The notes: generated from the letters alone by a model not told the origin. 64,000 nt of DNA from a virus (IMGVR_UViG_3300032218_002851:25858-89857); one strand, 5' to 3'; positions 7,165 to 20,863 are shown, counted from the stretch's first letter. Numbers and translations: made by a program.

Positions 7165-7581
7165 TTATTTGTCTGAATCAATTGCTTCTGATAGTTTACG
7201 GAATTCATCCCGGTCATCATAATCTACAAACCATTCACCACGCCAAATGTAATTGTACTCTTCAAAATGGCAATTTTGCTGATAGTCATTGAAATCATCG
7301 TATTGCTTTGTTGCTACACCAGCTTCTCCGCGATCGCGGCCGTAGTATACGGTGCAATCTGTCTCTGGAAAACTAAAAGAGTGCTTTTCAGTTTTTGGCT
7401 CAATGTACTTGCCCAGAACACTGATGTCACCCAGTTTGACAAGCTCAGTTGCCAGATTCTGGCTGTTGTAATGTTTCAAGAGAATTAATCCGTTGTGAGA
7501 CAGGTAACCATCCCAATGACAATAGACCATTTGGATCTGTCCATTGTCGAGTTCAACTGCGATAGTACTACGTGTGGCCAT
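7165..7581 (-). CDS. phage early hypothetical protein (YCHWDGY motif)
   Basis: MATRSTIAV...VYCHWDGY; AAGGA RBS before ATG 7581. Confidence 0.7.
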   Translation of the reverse strand: MATRSTIAVELDNGQIQMVYCHWDGYLSHNGLILLKHYNSQNLATELVKLGDISVLGKYIEPKTEKHSFSFPETDCTVYYGRDRGEAGVATKQYDDFNDYQQNCHFEEYNYIWRGEWFVDYDDRDEFRKLSEAIDSDK

Positions 7582-8719: not shown

Positions 8720-9667
8720 TTACTTAACCCATTCTTGTGCTTTTTGAGCTACTTTAGCGGGTAATGGAACATATCCATCTTTGACTACAATTTCTTGTCC
8801 AGTCTTTGATAGCACCATCTTCATAAATTCCTTTTCAAGAGGAGCAAGAGATTCATTAGGATGCTTGTTCACATAAACATACAAGTATCGAGCTAAAGGA
8901 TACTTACCGGAAATAGCATTTTCTGGTGTTGGTTCAATAGCCTCTCCACCGTCTTTACGAGAAAGAGGAAGAGCTTTAACGCTTGCAGTCTTATAACCAA
9001 TACCAGAGTACCCAATACCGTTCAATGATTTAGTAACACCTTGTACCACAGAAGCAGATCCGGGCTGCTCATTTACGTTACTCTTATAGTCGCCTTTACA
9101 AAGAGCAAACTCTTTAAAGTAACCGTATGTGCCTGATACTGAATTACGACCAAACATCTGAATGCGCTGATTGCCAAGATCACCAGTTACTCCTAGACCG
9201 CTCCACTGGCTAATGTCGTTATCGTGACCGCAAGCTCTTGTTGCAGAATAGATTGCATCAACTTGTGGGATAGAGATAGATGTGATCGGATTATCCTTAT
9301 GAACAAAGACGGCTAGAGCATCAATTGCTACTGGAATAGCCGTTGGCTTATATCCATACTTGCCTTCAAATGCCTCTACTTCTTCCGACTTCATCATACG
9401 ACTCATCGGACCTAGTGTTGCCGTGCCTTCAGTTAGAGCAGGAGGAGCCGTAGCTGAACCTGCTGCTTGAATCTGTACTGTGACATTAGGATAGAGACGT
9501 TTAAATTCTTCTGCCCAAAGTGACATAAGATTTGCAAGAGTATCAGACCCAACTGATGATAGCGTACCCGATACACCTTCTACTTTTTCGTAGGGAACAA
9601 TCTCCGCATCGATTGCTGATGCGGAGAAAGAGATTGTGGCAAGAATACTAAGTAATAGTTTTTTCAT
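8720..9667 (-). CDS. pstS: phosphate ABC transporter substrate-binding protein PstS
   Basis: Signal peptide; [38 protein letters not shown] motifs. Confidence 0.92.
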
Positions 9668-15263: not shown

Positions 15264-15470
15264 TCAAATATTTTGGTCATCATAAGAGTCAAAAAGAACG
15301 CTTGGATCTTGTAGCCCGATCAATGATCCGCCTGGACCTTTGCGAAGAATACCTTTTTCTAGCCCGTGTTGTTTGATATTTTTCCATTCTTCTTCTAGAA
15401 GGTTGGTGAAATCTTCTTCGGAACCTAAAAATTCTTCAGGCCATGGTTTGTTCTTTATTTTATTTTTCAT
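15264..15470 (-). CDS. hypothetical protein
   Basis: ORF track; start overlaps the end of the GT4 gene. Confidence 0.55.
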   Translation of the reverse strand: MKNKIKNKPWPEEFLGSEEDFTNLLEEEWKNIKQHGLEKGILRKGPGGSLIGLQDPSVLFDSYDDQNI

Positions 15471-16467
15471 TTGCTACACACTCCGCGTGTTCAATAAATT
15501 GTCGCGCTGAATACCGCCAAGTCCAGCGTTCAGCAGTATACCTAACTCGTCGTCTATCTATATTAGCGCATTGGTCTAAGGCTGTTTGCAAGTCCGTGTT
15601 TATCCATCCGTTTATTCCGTTTTCAATTACTTCCAGCGGCCCTGGTTCTGGATATGCAGCTACTGGAGTGCCAGAAGCAATGGCTTCTAGCAGCACAATC
15701 CCAAACGTATCAGATTTACTGGGAAACACAAATGCATCAGCATTGGCATACCATTTAGCCAATGCTGCACCTTCTTGATGACCCGGGAAAATAACATCTG
15801 GATATTTTCGCTTTAACGAAGCGAGATATGGGCCATCACCTACCAAAACTTTTTGGGAATGATTCAATCGACAAAAATCATCCAAGCCTTTTTCCTTGCT
15901 AGCCCTACTCACGCACAAAATATAGCCACCAGTTGTTTGGTCTCTTTTATCCAAGGAAAATAACTTTCCATCCACACCTCTAGTCCATATAGAAGTGTTG
16001 TACATTCCGTGCTGGTGCAAACACTGTGCTAAACCTACAGTAGGACAAAGAATCGCTTGGCTATTTCGATGAAACCAACGAAAGTAAGGATATGTCAAGT
16101 GTGTCGGTATTCCCCAACGACGCTTAATAAGATCAGGAAACAGTGTATGAAAACCTGTGGTAAAAGGTATGGTGTTGCGCTTACAAAATCGCCGAGTCAT
16201 GAGTCCGATAGGACCTTCGGTAGCTATGTGTATGTTCGTGTCGCTATCAACCCTTGATGAAAGTTCATTGGTTACTGCGGATAAATTACAAACATATTCG
16301 ATTTCAGGATATGCTTTTAATATTCTACGTTTGAAAGCCGGCAGATACGGATGAATCACATCACAAGTCACACCTAACTCTGAAAAATAAGGCAAAATAT
16401 TTTGATATGAGCGAATCACGCCATTTACTTGGGGAATCCAGGCATCAGTAGCTATCAATATTTTCAT
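15460..16467 (-). CDS. GT4 glycosyltransferase, Agt-like glycolipid synthase
   Basis: MKILIATDAWIPQVNGV, HIATEGPIG, WTRGVD, FVFPSKSDTFGIVLLEAIASGTPV; ATGA overlap with the plcP-like gene. Confidence 0.85.
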   Translation of the reverse strand: MKILIATDAWIPQVNGVIRSYQNILPYFSELGVTCDVIHPYLPAFKRRILKAYPEIEYVCNLSAVTNELSSRVDSDTNIHIATEGPIGLMTRRFCKRNTIPFTTGFHTLFPDLIKRRWGIPTHLTYPYFRWFHRNSQAILCPTVGLAQCLHQHGMYNTSIWTRGVDGKLFSLDKRDQTTGGYILCVSRASKEKGLDDFCRLNHSQKVLVGDGPYLASLKRKYPDVIFPGHQEGAALAKWYANADAFVFPSKSDTFGIVLLEAIASGTPVAAYPEPGPLEVIENGINGWINTDLQTALDQCANIDRRRVRYTAERWTWRYSARQFIEHAECVANEK

Positions 16468-17213
16468 GAACTCATGCTACTCCATTCGATAATACGCCAG
16501 TTGCCATTAAAATCTTCAACCAGTGCTGTGCAACTTTCCACAAAATCGCCGTCGTTCATGTATTCAACGCCATCAATCTGTTTGATTTCTGCATGGTGAA
16601 TGTGTCCACAAATAATACCGTCATAACCTTTGCGACGACAATACTCAGCCATGTTTTTCTCATAGCTTACAATATGACCTACTGCAGTTTTTACAGCCAA
16701 CTTCAAATACTTGCTTAGACTCCAATAGCCAAATCCAAATTTGCGACGAATCCAGTTGAACTGCGTGTTTAGTCCTAAAATCATTTCATAAAGGTAATCT
16801 CCTAAGTAACTAATCCAACGATGATAATTCAAGATGCCATCAAACATGTCGCCATGAATCAACAAATATCGTCGGCCATTAAGGGCAGTATATTCATAAC
16901 GATTGTGGATCTTGATCAATCCAAAACTTAAGTCTAGTCCTAGAGTGGCTCGTAAAAATTCATCATGATTTCCTACGATATAATGAACTTTGGTTCCTTT
17001 TTTAGCGTGACTTAGAATCTTGCGAACTACATTGGTATGAGTTTGATCCCATCGCCATTTCTTCTGCTGTATCTTCCATCCGTCGATGATATCTCCGATC
17101 AAGAATAGATTTTCTGCTTGATTGTGTTTGAGAAAATCTAAAAGCAATAAGGACTTGCAATCCTTACTGCCTAAGTGCAGATCGCTGATACAAATAGTCT
17201 TATATCTGTTCAT
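16464..17213 (-). CDS. plcP: PlcP-like metallophosphoesterase (phospholipase C; LpxH-related family)
   Basis: ISDLHLG, LIGDIIDGW, GNHDEFLR, IHGD, ICGHIH, NDGDFVESCTALVE; GNHD rather than the GNRD of canonical LpxH; adjacent GT4 gene. Confidence 0.75.
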   Translation of the reverse strand: MNRYKTICISDLHLGSKDCKSLLLLDFLKHNQAENLFLIGDIIDGWKIQQKKWRWDQTHTNVVRKILSHAKKGTKVHYIVGNHDEFLRATLGLDLSFGLIKIHNRYEYTALNGRRYLLIHGDMFDGILNYHRWISYLGDYLYEMILGLNTQFNWIRRKFGFGYWSLSKYLKLAVKTAVGHIVSYEKNMAEYCRRKGYDGIICGHIHHAEIKQIDGVEYMNDGDFVESCTALVEDFNGNWRIIEWSSMSS

Positions 17214-17430: not shown

Positions 17431-17598
17431 TTAGCTAATATTGTTATGTTCAGTGTTGCTATTTGATTCTTCACTTTCGTCTACAAGATCAAATACCCAA
17501 TTGATCGGAATATTTAAATTTTTCGCAATATCGCGAATTTTAACACCAGCTTGATATGCGCACACAACTTCGATATATAAATCAGACATATTGCTCAT
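17431..17598 (-). CDS. small HTH-like hypothetical protein
   Basis: GVKIRDIAKNLNIPINWV resembles a helix-turn-helix. Confidence 0.55.
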   Translation of the reverse strand: MSNMSDLYIEVVCAYQAGVKIRDIAKNLNIPINWVFDLVDESEESNSNTEHNNIS

Positions 17599-17815
17599 AG
17601 TTTTGATTCTCGTTAGGTTCAAACATAGTCGGAATTGAAGGCATTGTCATCCAATGCGTAATATCTAATGGTTTGTTATATTGATTATAAAAGGCAAAAG
17701 GCGTAACTCCCTTTACATCTCGGTATTGGAACCAAGCGATTTCAATAAATTCTCCATTGAACACCAAAAAATAACCGTTGAAGGTAGGTAGTCGATCTCT
17801 TACCTTAATCCACAT
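17582..17815 (-). CDS. DUF551-like protein
   Basis: MWIKVRDRLP...ITHWMTMP pattern. Confidence 0.75.
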   Translation of the reverse strand: MWIKVRDRLPTFNGYFLVFNGEFIEIAWFQYRDVKGVTPFAFYNQYNKPLDITHWMTMPSIPTMFEPNENQNYEQYV

Positions 17816-18037: not shown

Positions 18038-18140
18038 TTTCCTAACTCCAGTTCGTTGACTTCAAGTGTATATTACATCCATAACCTAGATTTGTAAATT
18101 ACAACGGTAAAAGATGTATAGAATGTCCTGGTCTAGAATG

Positions 18141-18168
18141 AAAAAGAGGCAGACTAATGTCTGCCTCT
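18141..18168 (-). terminator. intrinsic terminator downstream of pqqA
   Basis: AGAGGCAGAC / GTCTGCCTCT 10-bp stem followed by a T tract on the minus strand. Confidence 0.8.
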
Positions 18169-18194
18169 CATTTATCGAAAGTTTGTGCTAAATC

Positions 18195-18269
18195 TCACCG
18201 AAATGAGACATAAGCGGTGATTTCGAAACCATTGCGAAGGTCTTGAAAAGAAGGTGTAGTCCACTGCAT
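18195..18269 (-). CDS. pqqA: PqqA, pyrroloquinoline quinone precursor peptide (24 aa)
   Basis: Not in ORF track; MQWTTPSFQDLRNGFEITAYVSFR matches the PqqA pattern W-x-x-P-x-F-x-D-L-R-x-G-F-E-x-T-x-Y with the ExxxY core; AAGGAGA RBS; TAAATA at 18294-18299. Confidence 0.88.
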   Translation of the reverse strand: MQWTTPSFQDLRNGFEITAYVSFR

Positions 18270-18395
18270 GTTAGTTCTCCTTAAATGCACTATTATTTAC
18301 CGTTGCTCTTCAGATAAGCCAACACTATCATCACGGACACGAGTTTTGAATACCACATTAGGCACAATTTCAGTTGTCATCTTTTTCTTCTTGAT

Positions 18396-18677
18396 TTATC
18401 GATTTATGCCATTGATCATTTTGCGCAAATCTGTTGAACTCAGCGGTCTGTACTCATGAAACCGAGAAGGCTTGCCGAGCATCACATAGTTTTGAACATC
18501 AATTTTGCTCATATAACACCACGGTGTAAAATCTGGTTCAATAACTTCTCCAGATTCATCTAATACCAAATAGTGTCGTATACTAAATCCTTCAGTTGGT
18601 CCGCTTTTTTCTCTAGGTCTATAAGAATAATTTCCAACTCGAAATCGAACCGCAGGCAATTTATCAATTTTCTTCAT
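18396..18677 (-). CDS. hypothetical protein
   Basis: ORF track; ATGA overlap with the upstream gene. Confidence 0.65.
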   Translation of the reverse strand: MKKIDKLPAVRFRVGNYSYRPREKSGPTEGFSIRHYLVLDESGEVIEPDFTPWCYMSKIDVQNYVMLGKPSRFHEYRPLSSTDLRKMINGINR

Positions 18678-18871
18678 TTTATCTGTATGGTATAATCCAA
18701 GCCGCGCACACGAGTGCTAGCAATATTACATTTTGGAATTAAGCTATCAATTAAACTTAACACGATATTTTGATCATTTTCATCTAAGAGCTTGAGAGTC
18801 CGAAGGTTTCGCAATGTAGTTCGCACTGTTGCAGTTGCCCGATTGTTACCAATAGTAATCGTCAGATTCAT
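18674..18871 (-). CDS. hypothetical protein
   Basis: ORF track; AAGGAGA RBS; TTGACA promoter near 18926-18931. Confidence 0.65.
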   Translation of the reverse strand: MNLTITIGNNRATATVRTTLRNLRTLKLLDENDQNIVLSLIDSLIPKCNIASTRVRGLDYTIQIK

Positions 18872-18987
18872 GGTCAGTCTCCTTAGTTGATGTTAGAAAT
18901 TAATTCTAGATGATTAGAATAGCTTTGTCAACTCTGACTCAGCCAACTGTGCGACAGACGCCGCACAGTTATTTATTATGGATATGA

Positions 18988-19328: not shown

Positions 19329-19480
19329 AACTATCTCCTTTTTTTTCTAATATAACTTTATTTATACAAATTATATGTTGCAGTGCAAAATAATACTAGT
19401 GTTTTGGAGAAAAATATATTTCTAAATTATATGGCTAAATATTGTCACATCCATTCAATCAATCAGACAGGAGATCAATC

Positions 19481-19846
19481 ATGGAAAATATTTTAGGTGT
19501 CATTTTTTCGTTGGCAATATTATTGTTAGCTTATATTTTGTATAGCTTTATTGCCAATCGTCTAACACAAGAACAATCAATCACCACACCAACAGAATCT
19601 GTAGTAACAGATGAGATACTTGAAGTATCTCAGCTTGAGACTGAAGTAAAACCAGCAGAAGAAGTTGTAGCTGAGTCTGTTGTAGAGAAACCCAAAGAAA
19701 TTCTAGTTGTAAAGGCTGCCAAGCCTAAGAAGACTAAGGTAATTGAACCTAAGAAGGAAAAAACTACCAAGACTTCCAAAGCACCTGTCACTAAAGCAAA
19801 ACAAACAGCCAATGCTAAAAGCAAAAAGAAATCAGACAATACCTAA
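19481..19846 (+). CDS. membrane-anchored protein with acidic then Lys-rich tail
   Basis: AGGAGA RBS before ATG 19481; N-terminal TM segment; E-rich then K-rich low-complexity region. Confidence 0.7.
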   Translation: MENILGVIFSLAILLLAYILYSFIANRLTQEQSITTPTESVVTDEILEVSQLETEVKPAEEVVAESVVEKPKEILVVKAAKPKKTKVIEPKKEKTTKTSKAPVTKAKQTANAKSKKKSDNT

Positions 19847-20863
19847 TTGTTCTGCACGCCTAGCTAGTTCTGCACTAGCTAGGTTCTTGCACTTACTTTC
19901 GGCTTGAATGTCAAACTCTGGCAAAAAACTCAAAGCCCAATCGTTTACTGCAGTGTTCCAATAGAAATCTGAATGCGCTCGCAGTTTGCTTTTACTAAAG
20001 CCATTGTTTAACAGAATTGTGTGGTCAGGCATCACATTTGTCTCATGATTTACCAGTACATCTTCACGACTTACGCTGTAATGCATGGCAGGACGTACAC
20101 CACGCCAGCTGTCTAGCACACGCTTAACTCGATTGTCATCGGGTTGAATGTATTCACCTTCTCGAATCCAATTATGATGAATATCTAGCACAATAGGCAA
20201 TAGATCAGACAGTGACAAACATTCTTCTAGTCCGTGACTCATTTCTTCATTTTCAATAGTGATGCAGTTGCGAGCCTCGGGCGAGAGTCTGGCATATGCT
20301 GTGCGAATACCTTCAGCACCTGCTCGGCCTGCAATATGCACGTTGATCTTAAAGTCTTGAAATGTCTTGCCATAGCCCATCCACCGAACCATGTTAGCGT
20401 GATATTCAAAATCTTCGATGCTGCGTTCTACAATTGCTGGTGTTTCGGATGCCAGCACTACAAATTGTCCAGGGTGAAAACTAAGACGTACATCATTAAC
20501 GCGAGCGATCTCACCAATTTCAGCAAAACCATGCTCACAATGAGCAATTACATCTGCACGTTGCCAGAAATATCGCCAGTCTGGATGCGTGTACATTGGC
20601 AGAAGATCACTGCCGATACGCATCATACGAAGATGCGACGGATTCTCGCCGACTAGTTTTACTAGCTTAAGAGTAACCGTGATATTTTCGGTCATTAAAT
20701 TCCATAGCTTTTGTTCAGCAATGTCTCGTTTTTGGCGAGACAACCAAGCTACGGTAGTTGAGCCAGTATTCAGTCCTTCCTTAGATTGAATACCTTTTTT
20801 AGGATGGCGTTCTACAAATTTGCAGCAGAAGCCGATTCGAGGAATGCGTTTTAGTGTAGTCAT
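19832..20863 (-). CDS. uvsE: UV damage endonuclease UvsE/UVDE
   Basis: RIGFCCK, MMRIGSDLLP, RLSFHPGQF, INVHIAG, ITIENEE, LDIHH, RPAMHYS, RAHSD motifs. Confidence 0.92.
   Translation of the reverse strand: MTTLKRIPRIGFCCKFVERHPKKGIQSKEGLNTGSTTVAWLSRQKRDIAEQKLWNLMTENITVTLKLVKLVGENPSHLRMMRIGSDLLPMYTHPDWRYFWQRADVIAHCEHGFAEIGEIARVNDVRLSFHPGQFVVLASETPAIVERSIEDFEYHANMVRWMGYGKTFQDFKINVHIAGRAGAEGIRTAYARLSPEARNCITIENEEMSHGLEECLSLSDLLPIVLDIHHNWIREGEYIQPDDNRVKRVLDSWRGVRPAMHYSVSREDVLVNHETNVMPDHTILLNNGFSKSKLRAHSDFYWNTAVNDWALSFLPEFDIQAESKCKNLASAELARRAEQLGIV

Follow-up and report, generated by a model that had tools for sequence, protein, structure and literature searches.

Position and identity of the pqqA gene

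The window analyzed here is a stretch of 64,000 nucleotides corresponding to bases 25858 to 89857 of an 89,857-bp virus record in IMG/VR, for which CheckV estimates a completeness of ~25%. Nearly all genes lie on the minus strand. A reading frame of 24 codons for the precursor peptide PqqA is found between a gene for a 93-aa protein and a DUF551 gene. The features of this locus, numbered from the first letter of the window, are as follows.

18396 to 18677, minus strand: upstream gene for a 93-aa protein with no Pfam or PHROG match, used as the synteny anchor for pqqA loci
18291 to 18299, minus strand: TAAATAATA box, a possible promoter element of the phage located ~21 nt 5′ of the ATG
18276 to 18282, minus strand: ribosome-binding site AAGGAGA, read directly, 6 nt before the ATG
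18195 to 18269, minus strand: pqqA, 24 codons plus TGA, identified by PF08042, TIGR02107, and syntenic orthologs
18139 to 18169, minus strand: intrinsic terminator with an 11-bp G+C-rich stem, a 4-nt loop, and a T run (hairpin at 18169 to 18144)
17582 to 17815, minus strand: downstream DUF551 gene (PF04448, 35.8 bits), in the same order on the related contigs L443 and L444

The reading frame begins with the ATG at 18269 to 18267 and ends with its last codon at 18200 to 18198, followed by the TGA at 18197 to 18195. A first-pass annotation of this DNA had described the 24-codon reading frame, its 24-residue translation, and the AAGGAGA site; all three hold, the last at 18282 to 18276, with the correction that the gene lies on the minus strand. 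An alternative GTG start 21 nt upstream of the ATG leads to a product of 31 aa. Because AAGGAGA falls inside this extension, the ATG at 18269 rather than the upstream GTG is the likely start of pqqA.

The 24-aa peptide reaches 33.8 bits with PF08042 (gathering cutoff of 21.1) and 36 bits with the equivalog model TIGR02107 (cutoff of 20), so that the search with the PqqA family model proposed in the first-pass annotation is passed. By both curated models, the reading frame is a genuine PqqA. A custom profile built from 158 distinct peptides finds one significant PqqA-like segment in the six frames of the 89.9-kb record, with an E value of 5e-14 compared to 3 for the next best segment. Since this single segment matches the PqqA profile in the whole record, the match is not due to chance. 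The peptide contains the leader residues Trp3, Pro6, Phe8, Asp10, Leu11, Arg12, Gly14, and Phe15 as well as the core pair Glu16-x3-Tyr20. Glu16 and Tyr20 are invariant in the orthologs described below and in 367 other collected PqqA peptides, for which the search motif required both residues. In the PqqA of M. extorquens, PqqE cross-links the glutamate and tyrosine that match Glu16 and Tyr20, and PqqD binds to the N-terminal part of PqqA (PMC10906245).

Viral record and gene neighborhood

The pqqA gene is located in a true phage genome and not in host contamination. Among the products encoded in the window are tail proteins, a DnaB-like helicase, a ribonucleotide reductase, and families known only from PHROG. 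The record is interpreted as a fragment of a very large phage because relatives of its UvdE protein are found on viral contigs of 200 to 400 kb. The stretch is present only in contigs of one study, with no RNA run listed among the holders in the sequencing-run search. A Logan contig covering pqqA is identical at a depth of 12.9; it probably derives from the source run of this DNA and is thus not independent. A megablast search of the 10 kb around pqqA against GenBank phages gives no match.

The absence of pqqB to pqqE, noted in the first-pass annotation for the window, extends to the whole 89.9-kb record (~25% of the genome), in which PqqB, PqqC, PqqD, and PqqE have no match at an E value of ≤1. 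The same threshold and the same record yield no member of the PQQ alcohol/methanol dehydrogenase family and no radical SAM/SPASM or PqqD-like gene. As a control, the search for PqqC was run on five bacterial genomes and was positive in all of them. The missing ~75% of the genome could contain further pqq genes or a methanol dehydrogenase. No association of pqqA with pqqBCDE is seen in the 89.9-kb record, as is also the case for the orphan copies of Methylophilaceae and for the copies of other phages; this limits a description as part of a pqq operon, not the identification as a PqqA.

Several further genes of the neighborhood were recorded. A 27-codon reading frame on the minus strand (18297 to 18380) lies between the 93-aa gene and pqqA; its counterpart in L443 (~7397 to 7495) has a 13-residue core in common with two conservative changes, and L444 contains no counterpart. 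On the minus strand at 15460 to 17213, a calcineurin-like (PlcP-like) phosphoesterase gene overlaps a gene for a GT4 glycosyltransferase, a pair that also follows pqqA in L443; LpxH models match this phosphoesterase only far below their cutoffs. A PstS-family phosphate-binding protein is encoded at 8720 to 9667 on the minus strand (TIGR02136, 279.7 bits; cutoff of 206.6), and the 468-aa gene upstream of it shows no NCBIfam match.

Orthologous loci and selection

The 93-aa neighbor has four relatives at 60 to 69% identity and none in IMG/VR. In three of the four contigs (L443, L444, and L445, the last cut off at the contig end), pqqA lies directly downstream. L443 (18.4 kb) and L444 (8.8 kb) show the gene order of the window, with UvdE, small genes, the 93-aa gene, a gap, DUF551, the PlcP-like phosphoesterase, and GT4, and in both contigs the gap between the 93-aa gene and DUF551 holds pqqA. 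The two copies reach 32.2 bits (L443:7532-7600) and 37.5 bits (L444:7732-7803) with TIGR02107 (cutoff of 20), and the ATG of each is preceded by AAGGAGA or AGGAGA. L445, a contig of 731 bp, encodes a 93-aa protein identical to that of L444 and carries the 5′ part of the same pqqA. These orthologs were overlooked by gene callers: a spurious antisense reading frame was called over the L443 copy, and nothing was called in L444. Among 80 contigs of more distant jumbo phages, none carries pqqA within 6 kb of UvdE.

Among the three orthologs from the window, L443, and L444, dN amounts to 0.24 to 0.31, and dS is saturated. Arg12 is encoded by CGC, AGA, and CGT across the three copies, and synonymous changes preserve Pro6, Phe8, and Phe15 between the window and L444 and Tyr20 between the window and L443. 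Glu16, Ile17, Val21, and Arg24 are likewise retained through synonymous changes. Read qualitatively and from only three orthologs, this pattern places the peptide under purifying selection: silent changes have accumulated to saturation, yet Glu16, Tyr20, and the leader residues persist. Between the three orthologs, 21 to 42% of the residues differ, whereas cellular PqqA subtypes are nearly identical across orders. Judged by these alignments, the PqqA of this phage clade is evolving faster than cellular PqqA.

Terminator and candidate promoter

The terminator hairpin begins 25 nt after the pqqA stop codon and contains 6 G-C pairs among the 11 bp of its stem. Its folding energy is −19.3 kcal/mol, with a z score of −5.7, and none of 200 shuffled sequences is as stable. 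Equivalent hairpins with the same stem core are found 3′ of pqqA in L444 (−15.2 kcal/mol) and L443 (−22.3 kcal/mol). A search with Rfam detects no known RNA family between 17000 and 19500.

On the 5′ side, the motif TAAATA occurs as GTAAATAATA at 18300 to 18291, and the nine bases of TAAATAATA are invariant in the alignment of the window, L443, and L444. A scan upstream of pqqA finds no promoter of the sigma-70 type. With one mismatch allowed, the 10-mer GTAAATAATA is not enriched in the window (10 copies found compared to 9.0 expected). Over the whole record, 32 of the 62 TAAATA copies on the coding strand are intergenic, with intergenic DNA making up 12% of the sequence; this is the highest intergenic share among 15 hexamers of the same composition, which reach 24% when pooled. 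ATAAAT, at about 51% on the minus (coding) strand of the record, is, like TAAATA, among the most intergenic of the 15. All six copies of TATAAATA on the coding strand of the record lie 15 to 91 nt upstream of the start of a reading frame. This pattern of TAAATA and TATAAATA presumably resembles the late promoters of T4-like phages, which would suggest that this phage has a promoter class of the T4-late type.

A dedicated pqqA promoter at the TAAATAATA box is plausible because TAAATA is largely intergenic, TATAAATA precedes reading frames, and TAAATAATA is invariant. Alternatively, pqqA may be the last cistron of the codirectional string of genes upstream, closed by the terminator. The TAAATA motif and the strong terminator of the first-pass annotation are both present near pqqA. 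Its assignment of the gene to a transcription unit of its own keeps the terminator at the 3′ end; at the 5′ end, the promoter is reduced to a conserved AT-rich box with no sigma-70 match.

Related peptides and unusual residues

A full HMMER scan with the 31-aa reading, covering 1.84 billion representatives, gives 88 matches. The most similar peptides are 62 to 79% identical over 24 residues and have a Met-Gln-Trp-Thr-Thr-Pro start and a Gly-Phe-Glu-Ile-Thr core; the one named organism among the closest is Trinickia violacea (WP_254700086.1; Burkholderiaceae), and the rest are metagenomic. This cellular subtype resembles the window peptide in its N terminus and in Ile17, and its best match also has the Tyr-Val-Ser ending. 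It differs in having Phe or Leu at position 13 and Met at position 19, in contrast to Asn13 and Ala19 of the window peptide. As the closest cellular peptides are mostly metagenomic, they name no host. The subtype is absent from five methylotroph genomes (Methylobacillus, Novimethylophilus, Methylophaga, a Methylophilaceae metagenome-assembled genome [MAG], and Methyloversatilis), and a pattern search finds it in no other IMG/VR contig.

Database proteins with three to six PqqA-like repeats in one frame were also encountered, including P0129 (822 aa) and P0133 (1,094 aa). P0126 (120 aa) has three tandem PqqA-like units, in which the leader contains Trp-Thr-Arg-Pro and the core reads Glu-Val-Thr-Ala-Tyr. 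Such proteins may be read-through tandem pqqA arrays or true multicore precursors.

The first-pass annotation had pointed to Asn and Ala at normally bulky hydrophobic positions. This is true of Asn13: position 13 is occupied only by Phe, Leu, Ile, Tyr, or Met in the 367 other collected PqqA peptides, and searches of viral contigs, metagenome records, and species genomes with the same PqqA motif carrying Asn13 find no match. It is not true of Ala19, a common residue carried by more than 240 bacterial and metagenomic PqqA peptides among the matches listed, including those of Marinobacter, Stutzerimonas, Dechloromonas, Methylophaga, Methylophilaceae, and Hyphomicrobium. A sequencing error behind Asn13 is unlikely, as the AAT codon of the window differs at 2 to 3 bases from the TTG (Leu) and CAG (Gln) codons of the orthologs. 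The nearest ortholog has the canonical Leu13. In L443, both position 11 (Asn11) and position 13 are polar, within a stripe of positions 11, 13, and 15 that is usually hydrophobic in PqqA; L444 has Val in place of the nearly invariant Thr18. A literature search found no published data on PqqA position 13. The variants of this clade are read as a sign of relaxed or host-specific constraint on the junction between leader and core, not of a decoy, and the efficiency with which these peptides are processed could be reduced.

Distribution of pqqA among phages and in methylotrophs

The occurrence of pqqA in viruses is not limited to this record. A degenerate DNA pattern detects the pqqA motif in at least 119 IMG/VR contigs, a number that is an undercount given the exclusion of Ala8 from the pattern. 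Every match is a reading frame of 23 to 25 codons starting from Met, and nearly all are preceded by a purine-rich binding site. None of the 50 longest pqqA-bearing IMG/VR records contains PqqC or a PQQ alcohol dehydrogenase.

The tblastn search for unannotated phage pqqA suggested in the first-pass annotation was productive among GenBank phages, with matches in nine Methylophilales/Methylophilaceae records, namely, four of Melnitz and one each of Venkman, P19250A, MEP301, MEP401, and MEP402. At least five of the nine (Melnitz, Venkman, P19250A, MEP301, and MEP402) contain an unannotated canonical pqqA for 23 to 24 aa with a binding site, and the peptides of Melnitz and Venkman pass TIGR02107. 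Nothing is annotated under the match in the five non-Melnitz records. In Melnitz-1, the annotated "hypothetical protein" Melnitz1EXVC043M_151 (MZ577095.1, 74848 to 74943; L447:2467-2562) is antisense to pqqA and probably a miscall; the gene itself has 24 codons (L447:2501-2572) and an AAGGAGG binding site and lies between a coding sequence and a tRNA-Leu gene. The other three Melnitz records likewise have a "hypothetical protein" annotated at the place of the match. Two further matches, in "Acinetobacter phage MD-2021a," were rejected as phage pqqA, as the match lies in a bacterial pqqABCDE operon. The 144-kb entry CAKLQF020000010.1 under this name (L449) contains ppk along with the full pqqABCDE and looks like a bacterial chromosome.

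Viral PqqA was described by Coutinho et al. (2020, Microbiome 8:163, PMC7678222) in phages of Lake Baikal methylotrophs as a helper gene for PQQ-dependent methanol oxidation. The publication on the Melnitz phage mentions PQQ only as a medium supplement. Phage pqqA was thus already reported in 2020, and it is frequent both among viral contigs and among cultured methylophages; the novelty implied in the first-pass annotation is overstated. Both the Baikal phage and the window carry a gene for the precursor peptide in a phage genome, open to the same reading as a methylotroph helper gene. The Baikal contig contains a methanol dehydrogenase, whereas the incomplete record of the window has none and encodes hps and phi instead; the window peptide also belongs to a different subtype, with the unique Asn13. 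The cultured Methylophilales phages, in the regions read, share with the window a stand-alone pqqA of 23 to 24 codons with a purine-rich binding site before it. Their peptides have a nearly identical core with Phe13, Val17, and Met19, along with Ala8. The window peptide is 48 to 50% identical to those of the OM43 phages and comes from a far larger phage of another lineage.

The same separation of precursor gene and enzyme genes is found in cellular genomes. Methylophilaceae contain 3 to 12 pqqA copies and a single pqqBCDE set (PMC4109929), and the separate copies are individually transcribed (PMC9851590). All 61 genomes examined from the family of a Methylophilaceae-titled MAG (G055) contain pqqA, with 1 to 12 matches each. 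These orphan copies resemble that of the window in lying away from pqqBCDE; they differ in being chromosomal, in contrast to the viral location of the window gene. It follows from the number of unannotated or miscalled copies in phages that pqqA is undercounted, both by annotation pipelines and by inventories of viral metabolic genes; few phage helper genes seem to be as widespread and at the same time as rarely annotated.

Host and C1 metabolism

Two genes of the same record bear on the host. The genes hps (TIGR03128, 226.6 bits; cutoff of 200) and phi (TIGR03127, 165 bits; cutoff of 160) are adjacent on the minus strand at 19351 to 20530 of the whole record (G000; L362:4355-5531), ~5.3 kb before the start of the window and ~24 kb from pqqA. 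They encode 3-hexulose-6-phosphate synthase and 6-phospho-3-hexuloisomerase, which open the RuMP pathway of formaldehyde fixation as its first and second enzymes. The formaldehyde taken up by Hps and Phi is the product of the PQQ-dependent methanol dehydrogenase. Relatives of Hps at 73 to 95% identity are encoded on metagenomic contigs of up to 63 kb, which probably belong to related phages.

The first-pass annotation had proposed a methylotroph or methanotroph as the host. A methylotroph agrees with the presence in this phage of hps and phi, each of which exceeds its equivalog cutoff, and the host is probably an RuMP methylotroph. A more specific assignment was not obtained from either of two candidate markers. 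Among named organisms, the nearest homologs of the phage Hps, from Methylococcaceae, Methylobacillus, and Methylotenera, are equidistant at ~63% identity. The record also encodes a permuted two-piece tmRNA on the minus strand (G000, 18522 to 18912; L362:3523-3913), whose tag peptide ends in ALAA. It reaches 122.5 bits with RF04321 and 102 bits with the betaproteobacterial two-piece model RF01850 (cutoff of 84). None of 31 Methylophilaceae genomes, which lack the permuted type, exceeds the RF01850 cutoff, and Dechloromonas agitata scores 331 bits; the tmRNA is not usable for a host call. The host does not obviously appear to be an OM43- or LD28-like member of the Methylophilaceae, since the tmRNA type is absent from these 31 genomes and the PqqA subtype is distant.

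Proposed function and alternative explanations

The best explanation of the locus is a functional phage copy of pqqA, acting as an auxiliary metabolic gene that would feed PQQ synthesis of the host. A probability of about 0.72 is assigned to this reading, which builds on comparative sequence data. As the first-pass annotation had claimed, the phage gene is a true PqqA according to the two curated models, and it stands alone in a record that contains no further pqq gene. During infection, the PqqA peptide would be made in quantity and passed to PqqD and PqqE of the host, after which host PqqB, PqqC, and peptidases would convert one peptide into one PQQ. A single tiny gene could in this way sustain or raise the output of PQQ, since its synthesis consumes the precursor but not the enzymes. 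The periplasmic PQQ-dependent dehydrogenases for methanol (or other alcohols or sugars) would stay loaded, energy and formaldehyde would continue to flow, and Hps and Phi of the phage would channel the formaldehyde into sugar phosphates. In this scheme, the peptide would be consumed stoichiometrically and the dehydrogenase-driven energy supply boosted, as the first-pass annotation had proposed. The arrangement would copy that of the Methylophilaceae, with many scattered pqqA genes and one set of enzymes. The phage would then act on methanol oxidation through its cofactor and on formaldehyde assimilation through its first two reactions, which together would make a coherent C1 program of the virocell.

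The pqqA gene might instead be a drifting passenger, a host-derived gene that can still be recognized although selection on it is relaxed and this phage lineage gains little from it. The divergence of the orthologs, far beyond that among cellular PqqA subtypes, would fit such drift, as would the unusual residues at positions 11, 13, and 18, the lack of pqqA within 6 kb in the more distant UvdE-bearing jumbo phages, and the absence of the subtype from all other IMG/VR contigs. Under drift, however, a 72-nt reading frame would not be expected to remain open and in register by chance over such divergence, and every signature residue survives at saturated dS and a dN of 0.24 to 0.31, along with the conserved binding site and terminator; the passenger explanation is therefore considered unlikely. 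A role as the substrate of another phage enzyme, or as a signaling or regulatory peptide, instead of a feed into host PQQ synthesis draws on the roughly three-quarters of the genome that are not seen and on the many genes of the record without known function, the direct neighbors of pqqA included. The record contains no radical SAM/SPASM or PqqD-like gene at an E value of ≤1, the whole PqqA signature is kept, and supply of the precursor, which matches the host habit of many pqqA copies, is the simplest reading. Such a different role is regarded as very improbable.

The first-pass annotation had also left room for a decoy that sequesters PqqD. In its wider form, the variant peptide would bind PqqD or PqqE of the host unproductively and thereby shut down or retune PQQ synthesis. 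Asn13, seen in none of the other PqqA peptides examined and missing under the same motif from three large collections, speaks for this idea, as do the two polar residues of L443 in the normally hydrophobic stripe. Against it stand the ordinary Ala19 and the canonical Leu13 of the nearest ortholog, and Glu16 and Tyr20, which a substrate needs, are kept in three orthologs through synonymous changes. Moreover, hps and phi use the product of methanol oxidation, so that a block of PQQ synthesis would work against them, and the OM43 phages carry fully canonical copies. The decoy is accordingly given very little weight, and the proposal is not supported. Somewhat less remote, but still improbable, is a remodeling of PqqA in this clade as a whole, in which polar residues at positions 11 and 13, adjacent to the site of cross-linking, and Val18 in one member would make the peptide no longer an ordinary substrate; it would act as a competitive blocker of PqqD/PqqE or be tuned to a divergent PqqD/PqqE pair. 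If true, the remodeled PqqA would reveal, as a natural experiment, which features the PQQ machinery recognizes. Asn13, Gln13, Asn11, and Val18 are natural variants at otherwise almost fixed positions, which would show how much PqqD and PqqE tolerate.
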